From contig JBHLMN010000020.1 in the NCBI GenBank assembly GCA_048938105.1, forward strand, positions 1-64,000: a DNA stretch of 64,000 nucleotides. Reading direction: 5' to 3'. This DNA comes from Promethearchaeota archaeon (GTDB taxonomy: Archaea > Asgardarchaeota > Heimdallarchaeia > Hodarchaeales > Hodarchaeaceae). The position numbers and the translations under genes are program-made. Position 1 is the first letter of the stretch; the number at the start of each line of letters is the position of its first letter. The notes under the pieces are model-generated. The model saw nothing but the letters and a program-made list of their open reading frames with translations, made no database searches and was not told the origin of the DNA. Positions 32,449 through 42,591 of this stretch are shown here, one piece after another.

Positions 32449-33471
32449 ATGTATGAGTTAAAATTCGATGAAAAAACATGTGAAACATGTCCAACTGCTG
32501 ATTGCCTCTCTAGATGCCAATATATCGATATTGATAAAGACATAGCAAAGACAGAAATAAAGAAAATGATTTCTGGGGAAGATTCGTTTGTGTTACATGA
32601 TTGTGTAACGTGTTATGCTTGCGAGGAGTACTGTAAGAGAGGTAATCACCCATTCTATTTAATCACTGATCTTCAGGAGGAAAGAGGGATTCTTCCTATG
32701 CCTAAGCCCCTGAAGACCCAATTTGTCAACATATCAGTACCAACAAGAAGAGACATTATCCAATTTTATGGTGCTGAAGAACCAGTTATTTCTCTGTGCC
32801 TTTTTCCTCAGTATACTCGGTTATTTAGCGAAGATAAATTCTTTGAGGAGCTCTCTATTATTATAGGACGTTACTTCTTTTGCCATCTTATGTACCTTCA
32901 CTCTGGTAATCCCTCATTGATTCGAGAGAAGCTTCCAACAATAATAGAAAATATTGCAAATCACGGATTCAAAGAGGTAATTTTCTTCCATGATGAATGT
33001 TATTCAACATTAACTTCCTATGCAACAGCTTATGGTATTGAAGTTCCTTTCAAACCCATTCATTTTAATGATTTTCTTTACAATAGATTAAAGGAACAGC
33101 AAGAGAAGATACAGCCCTTAAACGCAAAAGTGGCTTTCCAACGAAATTGCTCTGCTCGTTTAACTCCAAATGTAGAGTATCTTGTTGATGACATCTTCAA
33201 TTTAATAGGAGTTGAGAGAGTGGAAAGAAAATACGACAGAGAGAATGCACTCTGTTGTGGGGGTGTGATTAGAGGCCAACAACGATATGACCTCTTTATT
33301 GATGTCCAAACGAGAAATGTTGACGATATGGTGAATGCTGGTGTTGAATATTGCGTATTTCAGTGCCCTGCTTGTTTTGATTATCTCTCGGAGAAGGTTG
33401 CGGAGAAAGGAATCAAACCGATTATGATGCATGAACTATGTCTACTTGCTTTACAAGGACGTGATAAATAA
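32449..33471 (+). CDS. Fe-S oxidoreductase subunit with ferredoxin-like and CCG domains (HdrD/GlcF-like)
   Basis: CETC....C...C, CVTCYACEEYC, LCCGG, CPAC. Confidence 0.82.
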   Translation: MYELKFDEKTCETCPTADCLSRCQYIDIDKDIAKTEIKKMISGEDSFVLHDCVTCYACEEYCKRGNHPFYLITDLQEERGILPMPKPLKTQFVNISVPTRRDIIQFYGAEEPVISLCLFPQYTRLFSEDKFFEELSIIIGRYFFCHLMYLHSGNPSLIREKLPTIIENIANHGFKEVIFFHDECYSTLTSYATAYGIEVPFKPIHFNDFLYNRLKEQQEKIQPLNAKVAFQRNCSARLTPNVEYLVDDIFNLIGVERVERKYDRENALCCGGVIRGQQRYDLFIDVQTRNVDDMVNAGVEYCVFQCPACFDYLSEKVAEKGIKPIMMHELCLLALQGRDK

Positions 33472-34850
33472 TGCAATCTATATACAATTCTTTGACCAAA
33501 ATTGTAGAGGAGGAGTTTGTTTCAAATCAAAAAGAAGAGCTTTACATCTACTCTCAAGATCCAGGAATGATGGAACCTCATGAACCAGATTTTGTTGTGA
33601 TGCCTAAAACTACAGAGGAGATCCAACAGATAGTTAAACTTGCGAACAAGGAAAAAATACCCATAGTTCCAGTGGGAGGTTCATTAAGTTTGTCTGGTTT
33701 GGTTATCCCTCATCAAGGAGGGATTGTAGTAGATTTAAGAAGAATGGATAAGGTGTTAGAGGTTAATGAAGAAAGTAGGTACATTGTATTTGAAGCTGGG
33801 TTAACTACTGGTAAATTAAAGGCTTATCTGGAAAAGCATCATCCCTTGTTACGTTTCTCGATACCTGATGCTCCTCCTTCCGCGACTGTAGTTGGAAATA
33901 TTGTAATTCATGGTCAAGGACGGTTAACTCAACAATATGGGTTTAATTCTGATCTGGTTACTGGATTGGAGGTTGTTTTGCCAACTGGAGAAGTCTGTAA
34001 GATTGGTTCTGCCTCTGTCAGTCCTTATTGGTTTTCACTTGCTCCTCTACCTGATCTGGCGGGACTTTTCTTAGGATGGTTTGGAACAACAGGTATAATT
34101 ACTAAAATGGGTCTAAAATTATTTCCTAAAAAGAAATTGAGAGACATTGAAGTATTTACAGTAGAGGATCCCAACCTAGTTCCAAATGTGATCCAAAGAG
34201 TGACTCATACTGAAATGAGCGAAGATATTTTTACTGGCGCTCAACCGTATCCACCCGTATTCAAAGATATCATAATGATAGGAATTCTTTTGACAGGAGA
34301 TTCGAAAAAGGAGTTAGAATTTAAAAGAAAGATGATTTGGAAGGCTCTCCAATGTCATATCGATAGTAAAGAGGGAGGTTTCATGATGATGACCCCAGAT
34401 GTAAAACAAGACTTGTTAGAGATGCCAACTAGTAGTACAACAAGATTTGCAGATGTAATGAAAGGGGGAGGATTTGAATACTGTGGGCCTATTATTCCAG
34501 TGGAAAAATATCCAGAAGCCTTCAGAAGATTACTTGAAATAACAAAGAAATATAGAATTACTTTTGGTAATGCAGGACGAGTCATTGGTCGAAGTCATTC
34601 CATGATGTTTTCTTTTGGTTATCCCTTCAATCGTGCTGATCCAGAAAATATTGAAAGAACGAAGAATGCGTTACATGATACAAATGTAGCAAGTTTGGAC
34701 ATCGGAGGTGTACCTTGGAAACCTGAGGTTCCTGCACAAAGAATGATCATGGAACGGATGGACAAAAATACGCTTGAACTGATGCAGCGGATAAAGAAGG
34801 TGCTTGATCCAAATGGAATCATGAATCCAGGTAATTGGGAGGTTAAATGA
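33471..34850 (+). CDS. FAD-binding oxidoreductase, GlcD/D-lactate dehydrogenase family
   Basis: PDFVVMP.T.EE, VP.GG..SL.G, GLEVVLPTG, G..GT.GIIT, C-terminal LDPNGIMNPG. Confidence 0.88.
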   Translation: MQSIYNSLTKIVEEEFVSNQKEELYIYSQDPGMMEPHEPDFVVMPKTTEEIQQIVKLANKEKIPIVPVGGSLSLSGLVIPHQGGIVVDLRRMDKVLEVNEESRYIVFEAGLTTGKLKAYLEKHHPLLRFSIPDAPPSATVVGNIVIHGQGRLTQQYGFNSDLVTGLEVVLPTGEVCKIGSASVSPYWFSLAPLPDLAGLFLGWFGTTGIITKMGLKLFPKKKLRDIEVFTVEDPNLVPNVIQRVTHTEMSEDIFTGAQPYPPVFKDIIMIGILLTGDSKKELEFKRKMIWKALQCHIDSKEGGFMMMTPDVKQDLLEMPTSSTTRFADVMKGGGFEYCGPIIPVEKYPEAFRRLLEITKKYRITFGNAGRVIGRSHSMMFSFGYPFNRADPENIERTKNALHDTNVASLDIGGVPWKPEVPAQRMIMERMDKNTLELMQRIKKVLDPNGIMNPGNWEVK

Positions 34851-36007
34851 TGTTCAATTACGCTGATCAAATCCACAGATGTTTCAGATGCGGTTATTGT
34901 AAATTTCCTAATAATTTTAGTGATTTCAATTGTCCCTCTTATAACAGATTCCGATTTGAATCCTATTCTACAGGGGGAAGATTATGGTTGATTTGGGCTT
35001 GGGTAAAGGGGGAAATTGAGTGGTCAGAACATTTAGCAAATGTTGTATTCTCGTGTGCAGCATGTAGAAATTGTGTAGAACAGTGTCCTATGCGTTTTAA
35101 TGATGACATTGTTGATTGGATCATTAGTGCTCGAAGTGACATGGTTGAGAAGGGACTTATCCCCCCCTTAGTTGGAGAATTCTTAGATAATGTCTACAGA
35201 TATGGTAATCCTTGGGGGATGCCAAGAAATGATAGAGATTCTTGGGCTGACGGTATAAACCGATATCAGCCTGGTGATGAATACCTTTTCTATGTAGGGT
35301 GCGCTGGATCTTACGAACAACAAGGCCAGAGAATGGCTAAATCGGTTGCTGAATTTTTACAAACCGCAGGAGTTTCTTTTGGAATCCTTGGTTCAGATGA
35401 GGATTGTGATGGGAATGAAATGCTTTTCATTGGAGAGAAAGGTTTATTCCGAGAGTTAGCTGAAAAAAATGTCAAGAAATTTAGAGAACTTGGTGTAAAA
35501 AAGATCATTACACTTTCTCCTCATGCTTATAATGCAATGAAAAACAAGTATGGTAATCTTGGGGAAATCAAAGTATACCACTATACCCAGGTTTTCTCTG
35601 AAATTCTTAGAACTAGGAACCTAGAATTATATACAATCAACTCCAAAGTAACTTATCATGATCCCTGTTTCTTGGGAAGGTATAATGGGATTTATGATCC
35701 CCCAAGAAAGATAATCAAGGGTATCCCAGGAGTTGAACTCGTTGAAATGGAGAGAACTATGGAAAATTCTTTCTGTTGTGGTGGTGGAAGTGGAAATTTC
35801 GTTTTTGACCTTTTAGGAAAATCATCAGATAGCCCCAGTAGAATTCGGGTGAGAGAAGCTCATGAAACTGGAGCTGACCTCTTGATTGTGTCCTGTCCAA
35901 GTTGCTATTGTATGCTCGAAGAAGCGATAAAAACCGAAGGATTAGAGAATAAATTGATAATAAAAGATATTTCCGAGCTCGTGATAGAATCAATAAAAAA
36001 CAAATAA
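34847..36007 (+). CDS. Fe-S oxidoreductase with 2x[4Fe-4S] and two CCG domains (GlcF/HdrD-like)
   Basis: CFRCGYC...CP, CAACRNC...CP, YVGC, TYHDPC.LGR, CCGGGSG, SCPSC. Confidence 0.88.
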   Translation: MMFNYADQIHRCFRCGYCKFPNNFSDFNCPSYNRFRFESYSTGGRLWLIWAWVKGEIEWSEHLANVVFSCAACRNCVEQCPMRFNDDIVDWIISARSDMVEKGLIPPLVGEFLDNVYRYGNPWGMPRNDRDSWADGINRYQPGDEYLFYVGCAGSYEQQGQRMAKSVAEFLQTAGVSFGILGSDEDCDGNEMLFIGEKGLFRELAEKNVKKFRELGVKKIITLSPHAYNAMKNKYGNLGEIKVYHYTQVFSEILRTRNLELYTINSKVTYHDPCFLGRYNGIYDPPRKIIKGIPGVELVEMERTMENSFCCGGGSGNFVFDLLGKSSDSPSRIRVREAHETGADLLIVSCPSCYCMLEEAIKTEGLENKLIIKDISELVIESIKNK

Positions 36008-36051: not shown

Positions 36052-37494
36052 ATGCTTCTCCAGAGAAAAAAAAAAGAATTGTCTGAAGATCCATGTCGGA
36101 ATTACAATGTCCTTTGCGGAATTGAGGAAGAATTTCTAATAATCAATGAAGATGGCACGCTAGTAAATGCTGCTGATGAATTGATGGTGAGAGCTGCTGA
36201 AATTCTGGAACGAGATTCCAAACGGTTAGATTTTCTCCAACTAAAAATTCGAGGATTGGATGCTGAACCGTCACCAAGCCAAATTGAGTATGTGACTCTT
36301 CCACTTCCACCTAAAGATATTGCAGAAGCAATGAAAGCTGGGAGGAAACTGCTTTCTGATGCAGCAACGAAATTAGGATATAGAATTTTCTCTCAGAGTA
36401 TGCATCCTATACAGAGCGATCCTCATCCCATGTGCGGAACTCATATTAACGTTTCAGCCCAAACAGGGGGATTCATGAATACGGAAGAGTTAGCTGCAGT
36501 CTATAACTATCTTTGGAATTATCTTCCTGAATTAATTGCGTTATCTGCAAACACTCCTATCTTTCAAGGATCTAAGACGAATGTCGCTAGTAATCGTATC
36601 AGTAATTCGACTGTTCTCAAACCCAATGGTCCATCTCAAATTCAGATTCCCAAACGAAATGCAGCATTAATTCCTATGCAGTACTATGGTCAAATGCGAT
36701 ATACTTTACGTATAGCAGGCGAAAACGTGAAAAAAATCATAACTAATCCGAGAGGTGAGAGGCTAGTAGATATTACTCCAAGAGGACCATTAACGAACAT
36801 AGGTGAAGATGAGGACTCCGCTCTCACAACAAACCGTGTAGAAGTGAGAATATTTGATGTTCAACAGGATCTTGAGTATCTCCTTGATCTTGTTTATCTT
36901 TGCTGTGTTTCTGCTTTACATGCGATTTACCTTTATACTACAGGAAAAATCGCTCTTGATCCTAATCACAGAACTAATGTAAAACAAGCGGTTTTTAATG
37001 GTGTTAACGCCCGATTCGTACGGAATGGTAGAGAGGAGTCCTTACAAGAAAGTGTATCTCGTTGGATAAATGAAACAGAAAAATATCAAGATATGTTAGG
37101 AATTAAGATTCGAAAACTCCCCACAATCAAGACTGATTTTCAACAGGGTGAATTAGATGTCGAATTTACGACAAGAAATATTGAAGAACTGCGACAACAA
37201 GGAAAAATGTTTGTAGTAGTTCAATTGAATAAATCACGGACGATCACTGACCAACGAGGGAGAAAATATGGTATTTCTCGTGGAACTCAGTTACAAGGAA
37301 TGTTAGATGTCGATTATAAGCTCACTTACCAAGAAAAAGATAATATCGTCACTGATTTCCAGGGAATTAAAATAATTAATACACTTGATGTCCAAGGAAT
37401 AAAAATCACCTTAGACAATAAAGATCGAGTTCTTGTTGCATTAAGTAGATCGGATTATCTGTCACGAAGCCTCTTTGGTGGATTTGGTTTTTAG
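36052..37494 (+). CDS. Divergent glutamate--cysteine ligase family 2 (GCS2/YbdK-like carboxylate-amine ligase) with a ~120-aa C-terminal extension
   Basis: GIEEEF (ExE), E....QIE, GTHINV, P.LIALSANTP, SNR, VEVRIFD. Confidence 0.8.
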   Translation: MLLQRKKKELSEDPCRNYNVLCGIEEEFLIINEDGTLVNAADELMVRAAEILERDSKRLDFLQLKIRGLDAEPSPSQIEYVTLPLPPKDIAEAMKAGRKLLSDAATKLGYRIFSQSMHPIQSDPHPMCGTHINVSAQTGGFMNTEELAAVYNYLWNYLPELIALSANTPIFQGSKTNVASNRISNSTVLKPNGPSQIQIPKRNAALIPMQYYGQMRYTLRIAGENVKKIITNPRGERLVDITPRGPLTNIGEDEDSALTTNRVEVRIFDVQQDLEYLLDLVYLCCVSALHAIYLYTTGKIALDPNHRTNVKQAVFNGVNARFVRNGREESLQESVSRWINETEKYQDMLGIKIRKLPTIKTDFQQGELDVEFTTRNIEELRQQGKMFVVVQLNKSRTITDQRGRKYGISRGTQLQGMLDVDYKLTYQEKDNIVTDFQGIKIINTLDVQGIKITLDNKDRVLVALSRSDYLSRSLFGGFGF

Positions 37495-37531
37495 TAATAA
37501 AACCATTGTTAATAGAAGGTGTCACAGCGGA

Positions 37532-37912
37532 ATGAAAGAAGAGCAAAGAGAGGTTACTAACGAGAAATGTGACCAATTATTCACTTATGGAACCCTACAA
37601 TCTGGATATAGTCGAAATTATCTTCTTAGTGGATTAGAATATGAGAAAGCGATTTTAGAGGGCTATCGTAAGCTTACTCCTCCCACTCTAGGTTTTCCAT
37701 TCATACTCAAAGACAAAGAATCTAATGTTACTGGTGAAATTTATTTCCAGTTAACGCAATCTCATTGGACACAAATTGATTTAGTTGAAGGAGAAGGGTC
37801 TTTATATCATAGAGTTCTCGTAGAAGTGAAAACAATCTCAAAAGGGAGAAATTTATCGGCTTTTACTTATTACCCCTCAAAAAGGCTTATTGAGGAATAT
37901 AGTGAGAAATAA
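37532..37912 (+). CDS. Gamma-glutamylcyclotransferase (AIG2/BtrG/GGACT-like)
   Basis: LFTYGTL, V.GE.Y, D..EG....Y.R..V.V, A..Y. ATG 37532 is preferred over TTG 37475, which overlaps the ligase. Confidence 0.85.
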   Translation: MKEEQREVTNEKCDQLFTYGTLQSGYSRNYLLSGLEYEKAILEGYRKLTPPTLGFPFILKDKESNVTGEIYFQLTQSHWTQIDLVEGEGSLYHRVLVEVKTISKGRNLSAFTYYPSKRLIEEYSEK

Positions 37913-37915
37913 ACA

Positions 37916-38821
37916 ATGTGCCGATTATTAAGTCTTTGGGCGAATCAAAATCACAAAAAAACTTCTAGACATTTATTGAAATATTGGTTTAATGCTTGGT
38001 TGGATTCTACGAAGAAGGATCATTACTTAAACAGAGTATATGGCGTTCCAGAAGGGAATTGTGTTCACAAGGATGGCTGGGGTATTGTAACTCTTGGAAC
38101 TGATCACGATTATAAGATAATATGGGAACACAAAAATCAAGATCTAAAACCTGCTTTCTCTTACAGAAAAAATAGTCTAGCTCGATTAGTCATAGGATCT
38201 CCTTTTCTTAGATCAACACATCAAATCTTGTTAGCTCATGCAAGAAGGGCAAGTGTAAATATGCCAGTATCCCTGCAACAAGTACAACCATTACTGATTC
38301 ATGATGAAACAAGTTCAAGAAAGGTCTTTCTTAGCCACAATGGTACCCTTAATTCAAAGATTCTCAACGATATATTATATACAGAATCACATCCAATCTC
38401 AGCTCAATTTAATAATTTCTCTGACACTCAATTGTTAAGCTGGTATATCAAACAAAATCTAGAAAATAACTCTAGTAAAAACAGTATTAAGGATTTTTGG
38501 ATTCCAATTTTTCTAGAAATTATTGATAAGCATCAAGAAGACAACGTAAATTACCAAATGCAATTAATAATTTTAGAAATAACTGAAAATAATCCACAAT
38601 TAATCATTTGTTCTGCATTAAGTGATAAATCAAAAAGATTCATGCCCTATTATCGGTTATTTTTTGGAAAGAAAGGGAAATTTAGAGTAATATGTTCTTC
38701 TACGATCGTTGATCACTTTAAAAGTAATCATAAATCTTCTAACTGGGATTTAGATCCAATATCTAACAAAACTCTTGTTAATATTACCTCTGAGGGCGAA
38801 TTCTATCATGAATTATCATAA
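37916..38821 (+). CDS. Class II glutamine amidotransferase / Ntn hydrolase (EgtC/DUG3-like)
   Basis: N-terminal M-C-RLL nucleophile, H.DGWG, LAHARRAS, HNGT, SDT. Confidence 0.83.
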   Translation: MCRLLSLWANQNHKKTSRHLLKYWFNAWLDSTKKDHYLNRVYGVPEGNCVHKDGWGIVTLGTDHDYKIIWEHKNQDLKPAFSYRKNSLARLVIGSPFLRSTHQILLAHARRASVNMPVSLQQVQPLLIHDETSSRKVFLSHNGTLNSKILNDILYTESHPISAQFNNFSDTQLLSWYIKQNLENNSSKNSIKDFWIPIFLEIIDKHQEDNVNYQMQLIILEITENNPQLIICSALSDKSKRFMPYYRLFFGKKGKFRVICSSTIVDHFKSNHKSSNWDLDPISNKTLVNITSEGEFYHELS

Positions 38822-38860: not shown

Positions 38861-39814
38861 TTATAGTGGAAATCTCTTCATTCGGCTGTCTACCATTTGG
38901 ATGCCATACTTAACCATTTTAGGAATCCTTCCCTCCAATCCAGTTTGAATATATATCAAACCAGCACGACAATAAAGAAATTTCATCCTGTTTTTAAAAT
39001 TCCGATCTTTAGCTCTGTTATAATTTACTAACAAATGATCCAAAAAGAATTCGCCTTCATCATAAAATATGAAGTCTCCTGCTGGATCATAAACCCCTGT
39101 TTCTTCAAAATCTATTATTCCTGTTACTTCAAACGTTTTAGGATTAACGAGAACATTCGATGTATCAAAATCTCCGTGGATAACTGTTGGTATGAAATCA
39201 AAGTTTTCTTTTTCACCTAAGAATTCGAGGAATATTTGGGATACCCAGTTTTTTTGTGTTGTATCTAGCAAGGGGTAAGCATCTTTTTGTACTTTTGTAA
39301 AATAATTTTGCCAATAACACTGATATTGAGAAGGACTATACTCCCGTTCCCTTTTCCAAGTTGTACAAATTTTCTGATAGACTTCTTCTGAATGAAGTTC
39401 TGAGAGAAATTTTCCAAGTTGCATTGCAATGCTCTCTTGATCGTTTCTAGTGGTTCTGTTAAAGCGTCTGGATAAAGATATTCCATCTATCTTTCTATAA
39501 CCGATGAAAGGATCATTTGGATCAGAAGATACGAATATAGGCTTAGGAATTTGTAGAGAAATATTCTCACTGATTAGATCTAAAATTTTTGATTCTCTCT
39601 CAATTAAATTAAGTCCTTTCTTACCACCAAAGAAAATCTTATCAGGAAATCGAAACATATACTCGCCTTTAACTTCGAACACATTATAACTTCCATGATA
39701 ATGAAATTTAACTTCATGGCGTCTAATATTCGGGAAACACGACCGTAAAATTCTCATTACTTCTGATAATGAAATATTTGGTGGATTAGTTTCTTCATAG
39801 AAATCCAAAATCAA
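38861..39814 (-). CDS. Aminoglycoside phosphotransferase/choline kinase-like family protein
   Basis: FRFP, E..IL..I, IP.P, L.ELH, HGDF...N.LV, GIIDF. Confidence 0.85.
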   Translation of the reverse strand: MILDFYEETNPPNISLSEVMRILRSCFPNIRRHEVKFHYHGSYNVFEVKGEYMFRFPDKIFFGGKKGLNLIERESKILDLISENISLQIPKPIFVSSDPNDPFIGYRKIDGISLSRRFNRTTRNDQESIAMQLGKFLSELHSEEVYQKICTTWKREREYSPSQYQCYWQNYFTKVQKDAYPLLDTTQKNWVSQIFLEFLGEKENFDFIPTVIHGDFDTSNVLVNPKTFEVTGIIDFEETGVYDPAGDFIFYDEGEFFLDHLLVNYNRAKDRNFKNRMKFLYCRAGLIYIQTGLEGRIPKMVKYGIQMVDSRMKRFPL

Positions 39815-39969: not shown

Positions 39970-42591
39970 ATGAAACGAGTTATACTTATTTTTCTAGGAC
40001 TATTATTGCTTTTTTTGAATGTTGGGAGTGTCAATCCATATTTAGGCGAAATTAACTTAATAAACCAAGTAGAATTCAATTTGATAGACTCATCATTGAC
40101 TCAAATAAATCAAGGTGTTTACCAATTCAGTGCAATTGTCCAAAACTCTGGTGATCCCGCAACAACAGGAGTAGTCCCGATTTCATGGGAAGAGTACATG
40201 TACACAATTCCACTTACTAAGGGTGTTGGAACATTAGATGAAAGTGTTGTGGATTATGATATTAATGGTGATGATGACAAAGATGATACATTTACTGTAG
40301 AGTGGAACGATACAATCCGGCCTTGGGATGCTGAAATTGATGGTGTTTACGTTTACGCCCTCGCTGATCACTCTGAAAACCCAGGATTCAATAGAACTTA
40401 TTTTATTGATGGAAAATCCAAACTCTTTCAAATAGGGAATGAGATGCACACTCTTTACTATGCAGACAATTATACTGCATCATTCGGATTTGGGGACGCA
40501 TTCATTCTAAACTATCCAAGTCCTAACTTTGAATTCGTGGTATACTCAGATGTCAGTTTTATAGATATCACAATAAACGGAGAAGCTGTTGAAGTCAATT
40601 ACACCCGTAGAGGAATAGAGGTCTTTGTAGACGGAACAGAATCCGCATATACAATTTGTGTTGTACCTAATCAAGCAGCAGCAATTGGAACAGATGAAGC
40701 GATTGAATTTTCTTGTACAATAATCGCTCGTGAAACAAAATCTTGTGAGGTTGCACTCTTAGCAAACTGGTCCCCAGATAGGAATATCAGATACCGTTGG
40801 GTTCCCTTTGATCAGATAGATGTATCTTTTGAAGCGATTAATCGGCCTTTCTTCATTGACACTTCAATCGATGTTATTGATGTCAATACAGGTGTGAAAC
40901 AATTAGAGGCCACTATCAAAAATATTGGTGCGCCTGCTACAACTGGAGACATACCAATAGCTTGGGAAAGACATATATATGAGGTAGCACTTGATGCTGG
41001 TACTGGTACTCTTCTAGAAGCCGAGGCTAGCTTTGACCTGAATGGTGATGGAGACTTATTAGATTCTTTTGATATAACGTTGTACCCCAATGATGGCTGT
41101 CAATATGATGCCCTAATCAACAACGGAACTCATGATATCCATGCCTACTCCACTCTCGAGGAGTGGCTCTATCGTTCATCCAACCGGTCTTATTATATTG
41201 ATGGAAAACCCAAACTCTTCCAGTTAGGCAGTCGAACTCATTCTCTTTATTACACGGAAAACGATGTTGCTTTATTAGGACTTGATGCAGTTATCTTAAA
41301 GCATCCTAGTCCGCACTTTGAAGTAATAATAGAACATGAGGGTGCATTCTCATCTATACGTGCAACAGACTTTGAAATTAACGATTTACCTGTAAAATCT
41401 AATCTCACACGAGCTATACAATACAAATCCCCTTATTCAGCAGAATTAATGTCAGATATGGCGTACATCGTCCCAAACAATGAATTTGAAGTTAATCAAG
41501 ATGAAGAAGTAACCTTTTCGTGTACATTCACAGCTCACGAAGCGAAGATATGTGATATTTATCTCGTTATGAATTGGTCTCCAGATAGTAACATAAGATA
41601 CCTTTATGTTCCATTCTTGGAAGAGGTCACATTTAATCTCCCAAATTTCATTCTAGACGATTCAACCCTCGCCTCGAGTGCACCTGGAGAATATCAACTT
41701 ACCGTGGCCGTTAAGAACAATGGTGCACCTGCTACAGCTGGTACAGTCCCAATTTCTTGGGAGAAGTTATATTACGATCTTCCTCTTCTTGATGGTGAGG
41801 GGATTCTTGAAGAAAGCATTATTGACCATGATTTGAATGGTGACGGTGATATGGATGATACATTTGATGTGAAGTGGTTTCATAATGAAACACGGCAATG
41901 GGATGCTATTATTGACAATATTCACGTATACTCCCTCTGGGAGGGTCCCCCTGAAGATCCAAGGAGCCTTGAAATCCATTACATTAACGGCATGTCGAAG
42001 CAATTTAAATTAGGTAGTGAAACCCATTTTCTCCTCAGGGCTAATAGTGAGTATGCACATTTTGGTTTCTCCAATATCGATATCATTGACCATCCTAGTC
42101 CAAATTTTGAATTATACTTCAACACAACAGAGCTAAGTGCCAACAATTTCAAAATTGATGGAGTTTCTGTTAATGAGGATTATAAATGGAGTGGACGTGA
42201 ATTCTATCCGTCGTGGAGTGGAGACAAGTTTTCCACTGTATATCTCATTCCAAGCGATTCCTTTGCCATTGACACGGGAGAATTAGTAAAATTCTCTTGT
42301 AGAATCAGTGTACATAAAGAAACTACCTGTGATTTAGTACTTCTAATGAACTGGTCACCTAATGATAACATAAGGTTACGTTGGTTCCCATATGTAGTTA
42401 CTGAAACATTTGAAGCCCCATCCATGACATCTTCTACTCCAACTACAACACCCACTACCCCTGAAACTACCCCCACAACCTCTAAAACGACTTCGGAATC
42501 AGCTCCCACTATTCCAGGGTTTTCATTCCTAACGACATTGTTGATAACACTGCCTATCTTAGTTTTCATACATCGAAAGAAAAAGACTTGA
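39970..42591 (+). CDS. Large surface protein with three ~260-aa repeats, each carrying a D-x-N-G-D Ca2+-binding-like loop; T/P linker and IPGF-TM-basic anchor
   Basis: Signal peptide. Three copies each of N.G.PAT.G.(V/I)PI.WE, D(I/L)NGD.D..D, PSP.FE and NWSP..NIR. The C-terminus is TIPGF, a TM helix and HRKKK. Confidence 0.82.
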   Translation: MKRVILIFLGLLLLFLNVGSVNPYLGEINLINQVEFNLIDSSLTQINQGVYQFSAIVQNSGDPATTGVVPISWEEYMYTIPLTKGVGTLDESVVDYDINGDDDKDDTFTVEWNDTIRPWDAEIDGVYVYALADHSENPGFNRTYFIDGKSKLFQIGNEMHTLYYADNYTASFGFGDAFILNYPSPNFEFVVYSDVSFIDITINGEAVEVNYTRRGIEVFVDGTESAYTICVVPNQAAAIGTDEAIEFSCTIIARETKSCEVALLANWSPDRNIRYRWVPFDQIDVSFEAINRPFFIDTSIDVIDVNTGVKQLEATIKNIGAPATTGDIPIAWERHIYEVALDAGTGTLLEAEASFDLNGDGDLLDSFDITLYPNDGCQYDALINNGTHDIHAYSTLEEWLYRSSNRSYYIDGKPKLFQLGSRTHSLYYTENDVALLGLDAVILKHPSPHFEVIIEHEGAFSSIRATDFEINDLPVKSNLTRAIQYKSPYSAELMSDMAYIVPNNEFEVNQDEEVTFSCTFTAHEAKICDIYLVMNWSPDSNIRYLYVPFLEEVTFNLPNFILDDSTLASSAPGEYQLTVAVKNNGAPATAGTVPISWEKLYYDLPLLDGEGILEESIIDHDLNGDGDMDDTFDVKWFHNETRQWDAIIDNIHVYSLWEGPPEDPRSLEIHYINGMSKQFKLGSETHFLLRANSEYAHFGFSNIDIIDHPSPNFELYFNTTELSANNFKIDGVSVNEDYKWSGREFYPSWSGDKFSTVYLIPSDSFAIDTGELVKFSCRISVHKETTCDLVLLMNWSPNDNIRLRWFPYVVTETFEAPSMTSSTPTTTPTTPETTPTTSKTTSESAPTIPGFSFLTTLLITLPILVFIHRKKKT

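Follow-up and report, generated by a model that had tools for sequence, protein, structure and literature searches.

A putative make-and-break module for a glutamate-containing amide, built around a distinct archaeal clade of GCS2/YbdK-type ligases

A three-gene set for a ligase and two amide-cleaving enzymes

The window analyzed here (64,000 nucleotides (nt), positions 1 to 64,000 of contig JBHLMN010000020.1 in the Promethearchaeota archaeon assembly GCA_048938105.1, order Hodarchaeales) carries consecutive genes for a carboxylate-amine ligase of the GCS2/YbdK superfamily, a gamma-glutamyl cyclotransferase of the AIG2/GGACT type and an amidohydrolase of the N-terminal nucleophile (Ntn) kind that resembles class-II glutamine amidotransferases (GATases). 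On balance, these genes probably form a module that makes and breaks a glutamate-containing amide of what is probably a small acceptor, a reading built on gene order, intact active sites, protein fold and a neighborhood conserved among archaea. All three genes are on the plus strand, with 37 nt between the ligase and GGACT genes and 3 nt between the GGACT and Ntn genes (Table 1). Coordinates and gaps agreed with the open reading frames (ORFs), in keeping with the tight, co-directional packing noted in a preliminary description of the locus, and active-site residues were kept in all three proteins, as that description had claimed for the ligase. The three genes very probably co-operate because the ligase, across archaea, always adjoins an enzyme that cuts glutamyl amides. 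The start of the GGACT gene was placed at the ATG at 37532, 5' of which is a GGTG Shine-Dalgarno-like motif, while a longer frame from a TTG at 37475 was disfavored by the lengths of orthologues (113-126 amino acids (aa)).

Table 1. Positions in the window of the three-gene set and of the genes on either side
Feature	Position	Strand	Length	Remarks
GCS2/YbdK-superfamily carboxylate-amine ligase	36052..37494	+	480 aa	distinct archaeal clade
Ligase C-terminal beta-rich domain, family-specific	37099..37494	+		aa ~350-480: long hairpin, terminal helix, LFGGFGF tail
AIG2/GGACT-type gamma-glutamyl cyclotransferase	37532..37912	+	126 aa	from ATG
Stand-alone class-II (Ntn, Cys2) GATase-like amidohydrolase	37916..38821	+	301 aa	
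Three translationally coupled genes	32449..36007	+	340, 459 and 386 aa	CCG-domain protein; GlcD-like FAD oxidase; protein with Fer4 and two CCG domains
APH-family phosphotransferase	38861..39814	-	317 aa	58 bits
Surface protein	39970..42591	+	873 aa	no Pfam family

Association of the ligase with amide-cleaving partners across archaea

ORFs of at least 60 aa were called in 42 whole-genome loci and 78 species-level named loci, and neighboring genes were classed with hidden Markov models built from neighbor clusters, which were in turn identified by Pfam and NCBIfam. An amide-cleaving partner was found within three genes of the ligase in 75 of the 78 species-level loci, the other three being two contigs that ended at the ligase and one 25%-identical protein that is not a member of the family. 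Thus, wherever its flanks could be read in these 78 loci, the ligase had one or more amide-cleaving enzymes beside it. Of the 78 loci, 55 contained GGACT, a GATase or both. The order ligase-GGACT-class-I GATase was noted in 32 loci and ligase-class-I GATase in 11, both in Loki lineages; ligase-GGACT-Ntn in 5 loci plus the window, all from one Hodarchaeales subclade; and ligase-GGACT only in 6 loci from Hodarchaeales and Loki. An FGase-type amidohydrolase adjoined the ligase in 8 loci (Sif, Borr, Korarchaeia and Geothermarchaeota), followed an ATP-grasp gene and preceded the ligase in 12 (Njord, Baldr and relatives) and accompanied GGACT in 1 (a Heimdall lineage). The Cys-His-Glu triad was kept in the class-I GATase, and the FGase, a Zn amidohydrolase, kept HutG-type motifs and passed the Pfam cut-off. 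Outside the subclade with the exact trio, a class-I GATase or an FGase-type amidohydrolase takes the slot of the Ntn enzyme. These partner folds are unrelated, and all cleave amides beside a glutamyl unit, which indicates non-orthologous replacement in one slot. Conservation of the neighborhood, proposed earlier as a check, thus held for the link between ligase and cutter, which extends beyond this genome, while the exact trio was limited to six rows of single origin.

The closest protein matches bore the names Hodarchaeota or Heimdallarchaeota. A strong ligase match was present in approximately 45 of 300 sampled genomes of the phylum and in 10 of the 20 that share the GTDB genus of the window. 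Ligase-partner adjacency spanned at least eight GTDB families and extended beyond the Asgard phylum, with ligases also in Ca. Methanodesulfokora (Korarchaeia), in Geothermarchaeum and in a metagenome-assembled genome labeled Methanopyri. The system, called Asgard in the preliminary description, is therefore mostly that but is shared with Korarchaeia and Geothermarchaeota. In a ligase tree built by maximum likelihood (quick search), FGase-linked clades were basal, GGACT joined at the base of the branch that holds Heimdall, Hodarchaeales and Loki, and the class-I GATase (Loki) and the Ntn enzyme (one Hodarchaeales subclade) were later replacements. The Ntn group required one change on this tree, with 92% support, and ligase-adjacent Ntn orthologues occurred in only 6 genomes, all from that subclade. 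Within the window's genus, strong ligase-adjacent Ntn orthologues (E<1e-100) were confined to ligase-positive genomes. The Ntn gene is thus a late replacement, of single origin, in the hydrolase slot.

Two gene fusions were noted among the FGase-type partners. In Sifarchaeia and Borrarchaeia, the C-terminal part of the FGase next to the ligase passed the archaeal histone model NF043032 (53.4 bits, cut-off 50), scored 38 bits with PF00808 and looks like a bona fide histone fold; the gene is divergent from the ligase gene (L041:7517-8428 (-), also L042, L050, L077 and L076). Genomes of the same two groups encode, away from the ligase, a GGACT-FGase fusion of approximately 480-500 aa in which GGACT (aa ~108-227) precedes FGase (L105:2675-4186 (+), L103:3250-4689 (-) and L104). 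This fusion places two of the partner types in a single pathway, and it suggests an order of action in which the product is unmasked or cleaved at the alpha-amino side and cyclized afterwards.

The ligase and its added domain

The ligase matched Pfam GCS2 (PF04107) at 41.3 bits (cut-off 21), its sole Pfam match at E<=0.01. In an alignment of 35 sequences, down to 31% identity, residues E25/E27, E72, E79, H118, G129/H131, N167 and R182 were invariant, as were R237, R244, R262, E264, R266 and D269. The acidic metal ligands, His and phosphate Arg of catalysis of the glutamine synthetase/glutamate-cysteine ligase (GS/GCL) type were all found. Comparison of an AlphaFold2 model (predicted local distance difference test score (pLDDT) 88, predicted template-modeling score 0.85) with known structures by VIA gave a Z score of 31.4 for YbdK (1r8g; root-mean-square deviation 2.5, 303 aligned residues, 20% identity), and Foldseek gave E 7e-15 for the same protein. 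With the Salmonella structure (1tt4) included, the match to YbdK covered 303-308 residues at deviations of 2.5-3.0, and the metal, ATP and carboxylate residues were the same. Corresponding Z scores were 25.6 for plant GCL, 20.9 for Dop, 20.8 for Escherichia coli GshA, 18.3 for PafA and approximately 18 for glutamine synthetases. Compared with YbdK, the ligase has approximately 110 additional aa, owing to a beta insert (~190-235) and a beta domain at the C-terminus, and it is obligatorily paired with amide hydrolases.

Scores with curated models set the protein apart from characterized families. Thus, it scored 61.8 bits with the YbdK subfamily model TIGR02050 (cut-off 176.4) and 22.7-48.3 bits with the GshA equivalogs NF010041-45 (cut-offs 332-437), so that the concern that it might simply be a bona fide GshA was not borne out, all of these models scoring far below cut-off. 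When 1.84 billion representative proteins were searched with a profile, approximately 14 full-length ligase clusters at 50% identity were found, below which there was a sharp fall to ordinary GCS2 proteins of approximately 360 aa at E 1e-16. All near-length matches were of 476-492 aa or were fragments, and fusions to other domains were not found among proteins of 841-2400 aa. These findings indicate that, within the GCS2/YbdK superfamily, the ligase belongs to an archaeal clade of its own.

The remodeling of the ligase that had been described earlier, comprising an LVDITPR motif, a beta-rich insert and an added C-terminal domain, was seen in full. Among 35 family members, the motif RLVDITPRGPxTNI was kept and an FGGFGF-type tail was also present, and the model had additional beta strands at 196-230 and a beta-rich stretch at 369-465. 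The counterpart of LVDITPRGP in YbdK would be WWDIRP, as named in the preliminary description. The ligase model had the YbdK fold, while searches with the C-terminal part by itself, as had been proposed, gave no convincing relative. Modeled alone, the latter domain (pLDDT 83) had no Foldseek match in PDB at E<0.1 and no usable match in the ESM Atlas, and the C-terminal 130 residues matched only fragments of their own family in the profile search of 1.84e9 proteins. The best VIA score against approximately 48,000 chains was Z 5.4, mostly to SH3-like small barrels and within the noise range of the tool, and an SH3-like fold was not assigned from matches at Z <=5.4.

The cyclotransferase and the Ntn amidohydrolase

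The second gene had been described as AIG2/GGACT-type, and this identity was upheld: its product scored 56.3 bits with PF06094 (cut-off 22.8), matched an AIG2-like sequence in PDB (2jqv, E 6e-4) and shared the YGTLxxG motif and the catalytic GE with all of 26 orthologues. In the window's genus, an orthologue was present in 10 of 10 ligase-positive and 0 of 10 ligase-negative genomes. Since a Hydantoinase_B (5-oxoprolinase-type) gene is present, 5-oxoproline could be recycled; its co-occurrence was set aside as uninformative evidence, 18 of 20 genomes of the genus having the gene regardless of the ligase. PxpA was looked for and not found.

The Ntn protein scored under the Pfam cut-offs for GATase_6 (22.4 against 27) and GATase_4 (18.3 against 23). 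Residues Cys2 (after Met), R110, N142-G143 and D170 were invariant in ten homologues, down to 23% identity, and supply the N-terminal Cys nucleophile, Arg, Asn-Gly oxyanion pair and Asp of class-II GATases. Over the same motifs, a profile of the protein aligned at E 1e-4 with the class-II GATase domain in PurF, with counterparts kept of the PurF residues that hold the glutamyl head. In class-II GATases, these residues bind the free alpha-carboxylate and alpha-amino group of the glutamyl head. The earlier assignment of this protein as a Cys hydrolase of the EgtC/DUG3 type therefore stands as regards class-II GATase motifs but not as regards EgtC itself, since the score with the EgtC model (TIGR03442) was 16.3 bits against a cut-off of 218.65.

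Proposed function of the module

As its GS/GCL fold predicts, the ligase would convert a carboxylate to an acyl-phosphate with ATP and then join it to an amine, the carboxylate most likely being the gamma-carboxyl of glutamate by analogy with the family. GGACT would free the amine by cyclizing the gamma-glutamyl group to 5-oxoproline, and the Cys2 Ntn enzyme would free it by hydrolysis to glutamate. The glutamyl group would thus be a transient handle or protecting group on a small acceptor, such as an amine, an amino acid or a short peptide. Glutamate as substrate, the direction of flow and the small acceptor are what we infer from these enzymes. The acceptor is most probably a small molecule because no gene for a target, a carrier or a Pup-like protein is conserved nearby among ORFs of at least 60 aa in the 78 loci, because no fusion of the ligase to a further domain was found and because its fold is far nearer YbdK and GCL (Z 31 and 26) than PafA and Dop (18-21). 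The constant pairing of ligase and cutter suggests that the product must be removed or processed, or is a mere intermediate. Moreover, since the FGase was replaced by two GATase folds, the slot would be one for glutamate-releasing amide hydrolysis and not for ammonia supply. A product of the gamma-Glu-Glu type would suit GGACT, both GATase-type hydrolases and FGase and is therefore a candidate for a unifying acceptor; that the acceptor ends in glutamate (gamma-Glu-Glu or an oligo-gamma-glutamyl tail) is speculative.

Several points weigh against such a module. Glutamate is a substrate presumed from family analogy. At least eight Loki genomes (84-99% complete) carry GGACT, mostly with an adjacent class-I GATase (GAT1), but yielded no ligase with this query; three of these genomes have two genes for 2-hydroxyacyl-CoA-dehydratase-like (HGD-D) proteins followed by GGACT and GATase, with approximately 90-160 nt at the place of the ligase. 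The cutters thus persist without the ligase and therefore have another source of substrate. In addition, GAT1 of Loki is closer to the amidotransferase subunits GuaA-A, TrpG and CarA than to PuuD/C26 hydrolases. FGase enzymes cleave alpha-N-acyl-glutamate and not gamma-glutamyl amides, and the basal clades may therefore make a different bond. Finally, if one operon both makes and breaks the same bond, the cycle is futile unless some unseen step intervenes.

The preliminary description had proposed a cycle with one writer and two erasers. Of this proposal, the conserved link between ligase and cutter stands, but several Loki genomes keep the erasers without the writer and the theme had already been published (PMC2588565). 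Judged from sequence and predicted structure, the module is a solid prediction of a function class and not a new principle. Solving its biochemistry would assign a function to a well-conserved, mostly Asgard, archaeal ligase family and would show which molecule these archaea transiently glutamylate. The module is also a clean natural case in which three unrelated hydrolase folds occupy the same functional slot, and it thereby offers a strong handle for assays.

Comparison with known systems

In ergothioneine synthesis, a GCS2-type ligase (EgtA) adds gamma-Glu, which a stand-alone Cys-Ntn class-II GATase (EgtC) later removes. The window has the same type of ligase together with an Ntn hydrolase, while GGACT is absent from the Egt pathway, and genes of the EgtB/EgtD type were not seen within the 3-4 catalogued flanking genes on either side. 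In amine catabolism, the pairs PuuA-PuuD, IpuC-IpuF and AtdA1-AtdA2 couple a GS-fold ligase to a gamma-glutamyl hydrolase of class-I GATase fold, an arrangement like the Loki version of the module. These pairs differ in having GlnA-type ligases, whereas no Gln-synt Pfam match was found here, and in having oxidase and dehydrogenase steps between ligation and hydrolysis, whereas the flanking oxidoreductases here are not conserved beyond nearest relatives. In butirosin synthesis, a gamma-glutamyl protecting group is added by BtrJ with ATP and removed by the AIG2/GGACT cyclotransferase BtrG. Unlike the present ligase, BtrJ is an ATP-grasp enzyme whose amine substrate is bound to a carrier protein, and a gene for such a carrier is absent here. 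PafA and Dop are alike in combining a domain of GS/GCL fold with a small domain C-terminal to it but are structurally much more distant from the ligase than YbdK or GCL, and the ligase had no PafA or Dop Pfam match.

The nearest precedent for the neighborhood is bacterial. Iyer, Burroughs and Aravind (2008) described a GCS2-sized ligase beside either a GATase-like thiol peptidase or a cyclotransferase of the AIG2 family, as in Clostridium perfringens CJD_1902, and read such sets as serving the synthesis of glutathione-like compounds or peptide metabolites rather than protein conjugation (PMC2588565). A phage amidoligase cassette described later is grouped with these bacterial sets. The pairing between a carboxylate-amine ligase and a GATase-like enzyme or AIG2 cyclotransferase is the same in the 55 loci given above. 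The present ligases probably belong to a different family, the only Pfam match of the ligase in the window being GCS2 and the members with source names being archaeal, and they differ further in the added C-terminal domain, the presence of both partner types in one operon and FGase as the basal partner. A literature search, which did not cover Iyer et al. 2009, gave no description of this archaeal ligase family, of the FGase-histone fusion or of a GGACT and carboxylate-amine ligase pair. Thus, the ligase-cutter theme is already known, having been predicted for bacteria in 2008 (PMC2588565), and what is new is the separate archaeal ligase clade, its added domain, the two cutter types in one operon and the versions with FGase and ATP-grasp partners.

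Alternative explanations

It is unlikely, in our estimate, that the system tags macromolecules, with glutamate or a glutamate-terminated peptide being joined to protein amines, the C-terminal barrel docking the target and the partners acting as erasers. The added domain, absent from YbdK, would give this scheme a docking site by its weak likeness to peptide- and nucleic-acid-binding SH3-like barrels, including the C-terminal domain of BirA, but these are the matches within the noise range noted above. The FGase with the histone fold adjoins the ligase in Sifarchaeia and Borrarchaeia, the ligase is strongly conserved (approximately 55% identity between the Hodarchaeales and Loki classes) and the fold is also that of Dop and PafA. 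Against this scheme stand the same three observations that favor a small acceptor, the relevant ORF search having revealed no conserved Pup-like small ORF or proteasome genes in the 78 loci among ORFs of at least 60 aa, with shorter ORFs and a Pup model not searched. The analogous bacterial neighborhoods were likewise given a small-molecule reading (PMC2588565). Thus, the protein acceptor suggested in the preliminary description fared poorly, with no target or Pup-like gene nearby, no ligase fusion and only weak SH3-like matches. Because of the histone-fused FGase and the GGACT-FGase fusion, protein modification nevertheless stays open. In its widest form, a reversible and perhaps chromatin-linked glutamylation of macromolecules, with GGACT, GATase and FGase as deglutamylases and the whole an archaeal counterpart of TTLL/CCP or PafA/Dop, it is assigned a low probability; if true, it would be relevant to how the modification systems of eukaryotes arose, these archaea including the closest relatives of eukaryotes.

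Also improbable is a role in low-molecular-weight thiol metabolism, in which a divergent GshA would make gamma-Glu-Cys, an ATP-grasp enzyme would extend it in some lineages and GGACT and the class-II GATase would provide turnover like that by ChaC and DUG3. The same folds serve glutathione turnover in eukaryotes. The ATP-grasp partner in Njord and Baldr weakly matched glutathione synthetase (PF02955, E 1e-3; NF009110, E 1.5e-4), haloarchaeal GshA belongs to the GCS2 family, and YbdK has weak gamma-Glu-Cys ligase activity (PMC7278568; references in PMC2588565). This is opposed by the scores with every GshA equivalog, by the sharp separation of the ligase family and its added domains, and by the obligatory pairing with degrading enzymes; the patchy occurrence of the ligase even within one genus (10 of 20) would also be odd for a main redox buffer.

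A glutamine-dependent amidotransferase, in which the GATase, of class I in Loki and of class II here, hydrolyzes glutamine and feeds the ammonia to the GS-fold ligase for amidation of an activated carboxylate, has a still smaller chance of being correct. Class-I and class-II GATases do interchange as ammonia donors, although stand-alone class-II GATases such as EgtC are hydrolases. Both GATases here have full catalytic sets, GAT1 of Loki is most like genuine amidotransferase subunits and ammonia is used by GS-fold enzymes. In this scheme, however, the basal partner in the slot, an FGase-type Zn amidohydrolase, would be unable to donate ammonia and GGACT would be without a role; 6 loci have GGACT only, and GAT1 and GGACT persist without the ligase. 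That the adjacency is meaningless, with unrelated enzymes held together by the shared ancestry of close genomes, is very improbable: the exact trio does occur only in six closely related genomes with synteny kept on both sides, but the pairing of ligase and partner recurs, with changing folds and gene orders, over the range of families described above.

Flanking genes and other observations

The three translationally coupled genes upstream of the set end 44 nt 5' of the ligase and together resemble a split 2-hydroxy-acid dehydrogenase of the GlcDF/YdiJ type. These FAD/Fe-S oxidoreductase genes were dropped as part of the module, being upstream of the ligase only in the 3-4 nearest relatives. 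In Loki, the set is commonly 3' of a BcrAD/HgdC-type activase gene and two HGD-D genes; approximately 25 Loki species have a VIT1-family gene, the activase gene and the two HGD-D genes, followed by ligase, GGACT and GATase (L036:7190-12398, L093:1822-7100, L095 and L100). The HGD-D context in Loki and the GlcD/GlcF-like context in the window hint at 2-hydroxy-acid or glutamate catabolism, and both were kept outside the module because neither is conserved across clades.

Departures from the usual gene order or length were noted at a few loci. In two genomes of the window's genus, a gene for a GH77 4-alpha-glucanotransferase (MalQ-like, 603 bits) lies between the ligase and GGACT (L033:6911-8494 (-) and L034:4207-5754 (-)). 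In L070 (G197:C35:14747-16314), a ligase broken into two ORFs (288 and 254 aa) lies 5' of an intact GGACT/GATase pair, possibly as a result of frameshift or decay. Genome G108 has a 48-aa ligase remnant beside a scaffold gap of 100 N, where loss cannot be judged, and a 489-aa ORF at the position of the ligase in L090 was rejected as an unrelated membrane protein (hhalign probability 0.1). In one clade, a gene for a protein like the alpha part of ADP-forming acyl-CoA synthetase (CoA_binding and Succ_CoA_lig) is 5' of the ATP-grasp-FGase-ligase operon, and a relative is encoded near the ligase in one Loki genus (L045:4363-5937 (+) and L035:5431-6804 (+)).

Elsewhere in the window's own genome is a gene for a 988-aa protein in which a GCS2-like domain was weakly matched (24.8 bits; L189:681-3647 (+), corresponding to C53:143680-146646), and its neighbor is a 427-aa protein with VWA and CDC48_N domains. 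In Asgard families without the 480-aa ligase, a similar GCS2-like part is contained in open frames of 1000-1400 aa. Downstream of the set, the phosphotransferase gene is convergent with the Ntn gene and keeps this position in four relatives, and the surface protein encoded beyond it has a weak terminal Heimdall-CTERM signal (20.1 bits against a cut-off of 24).

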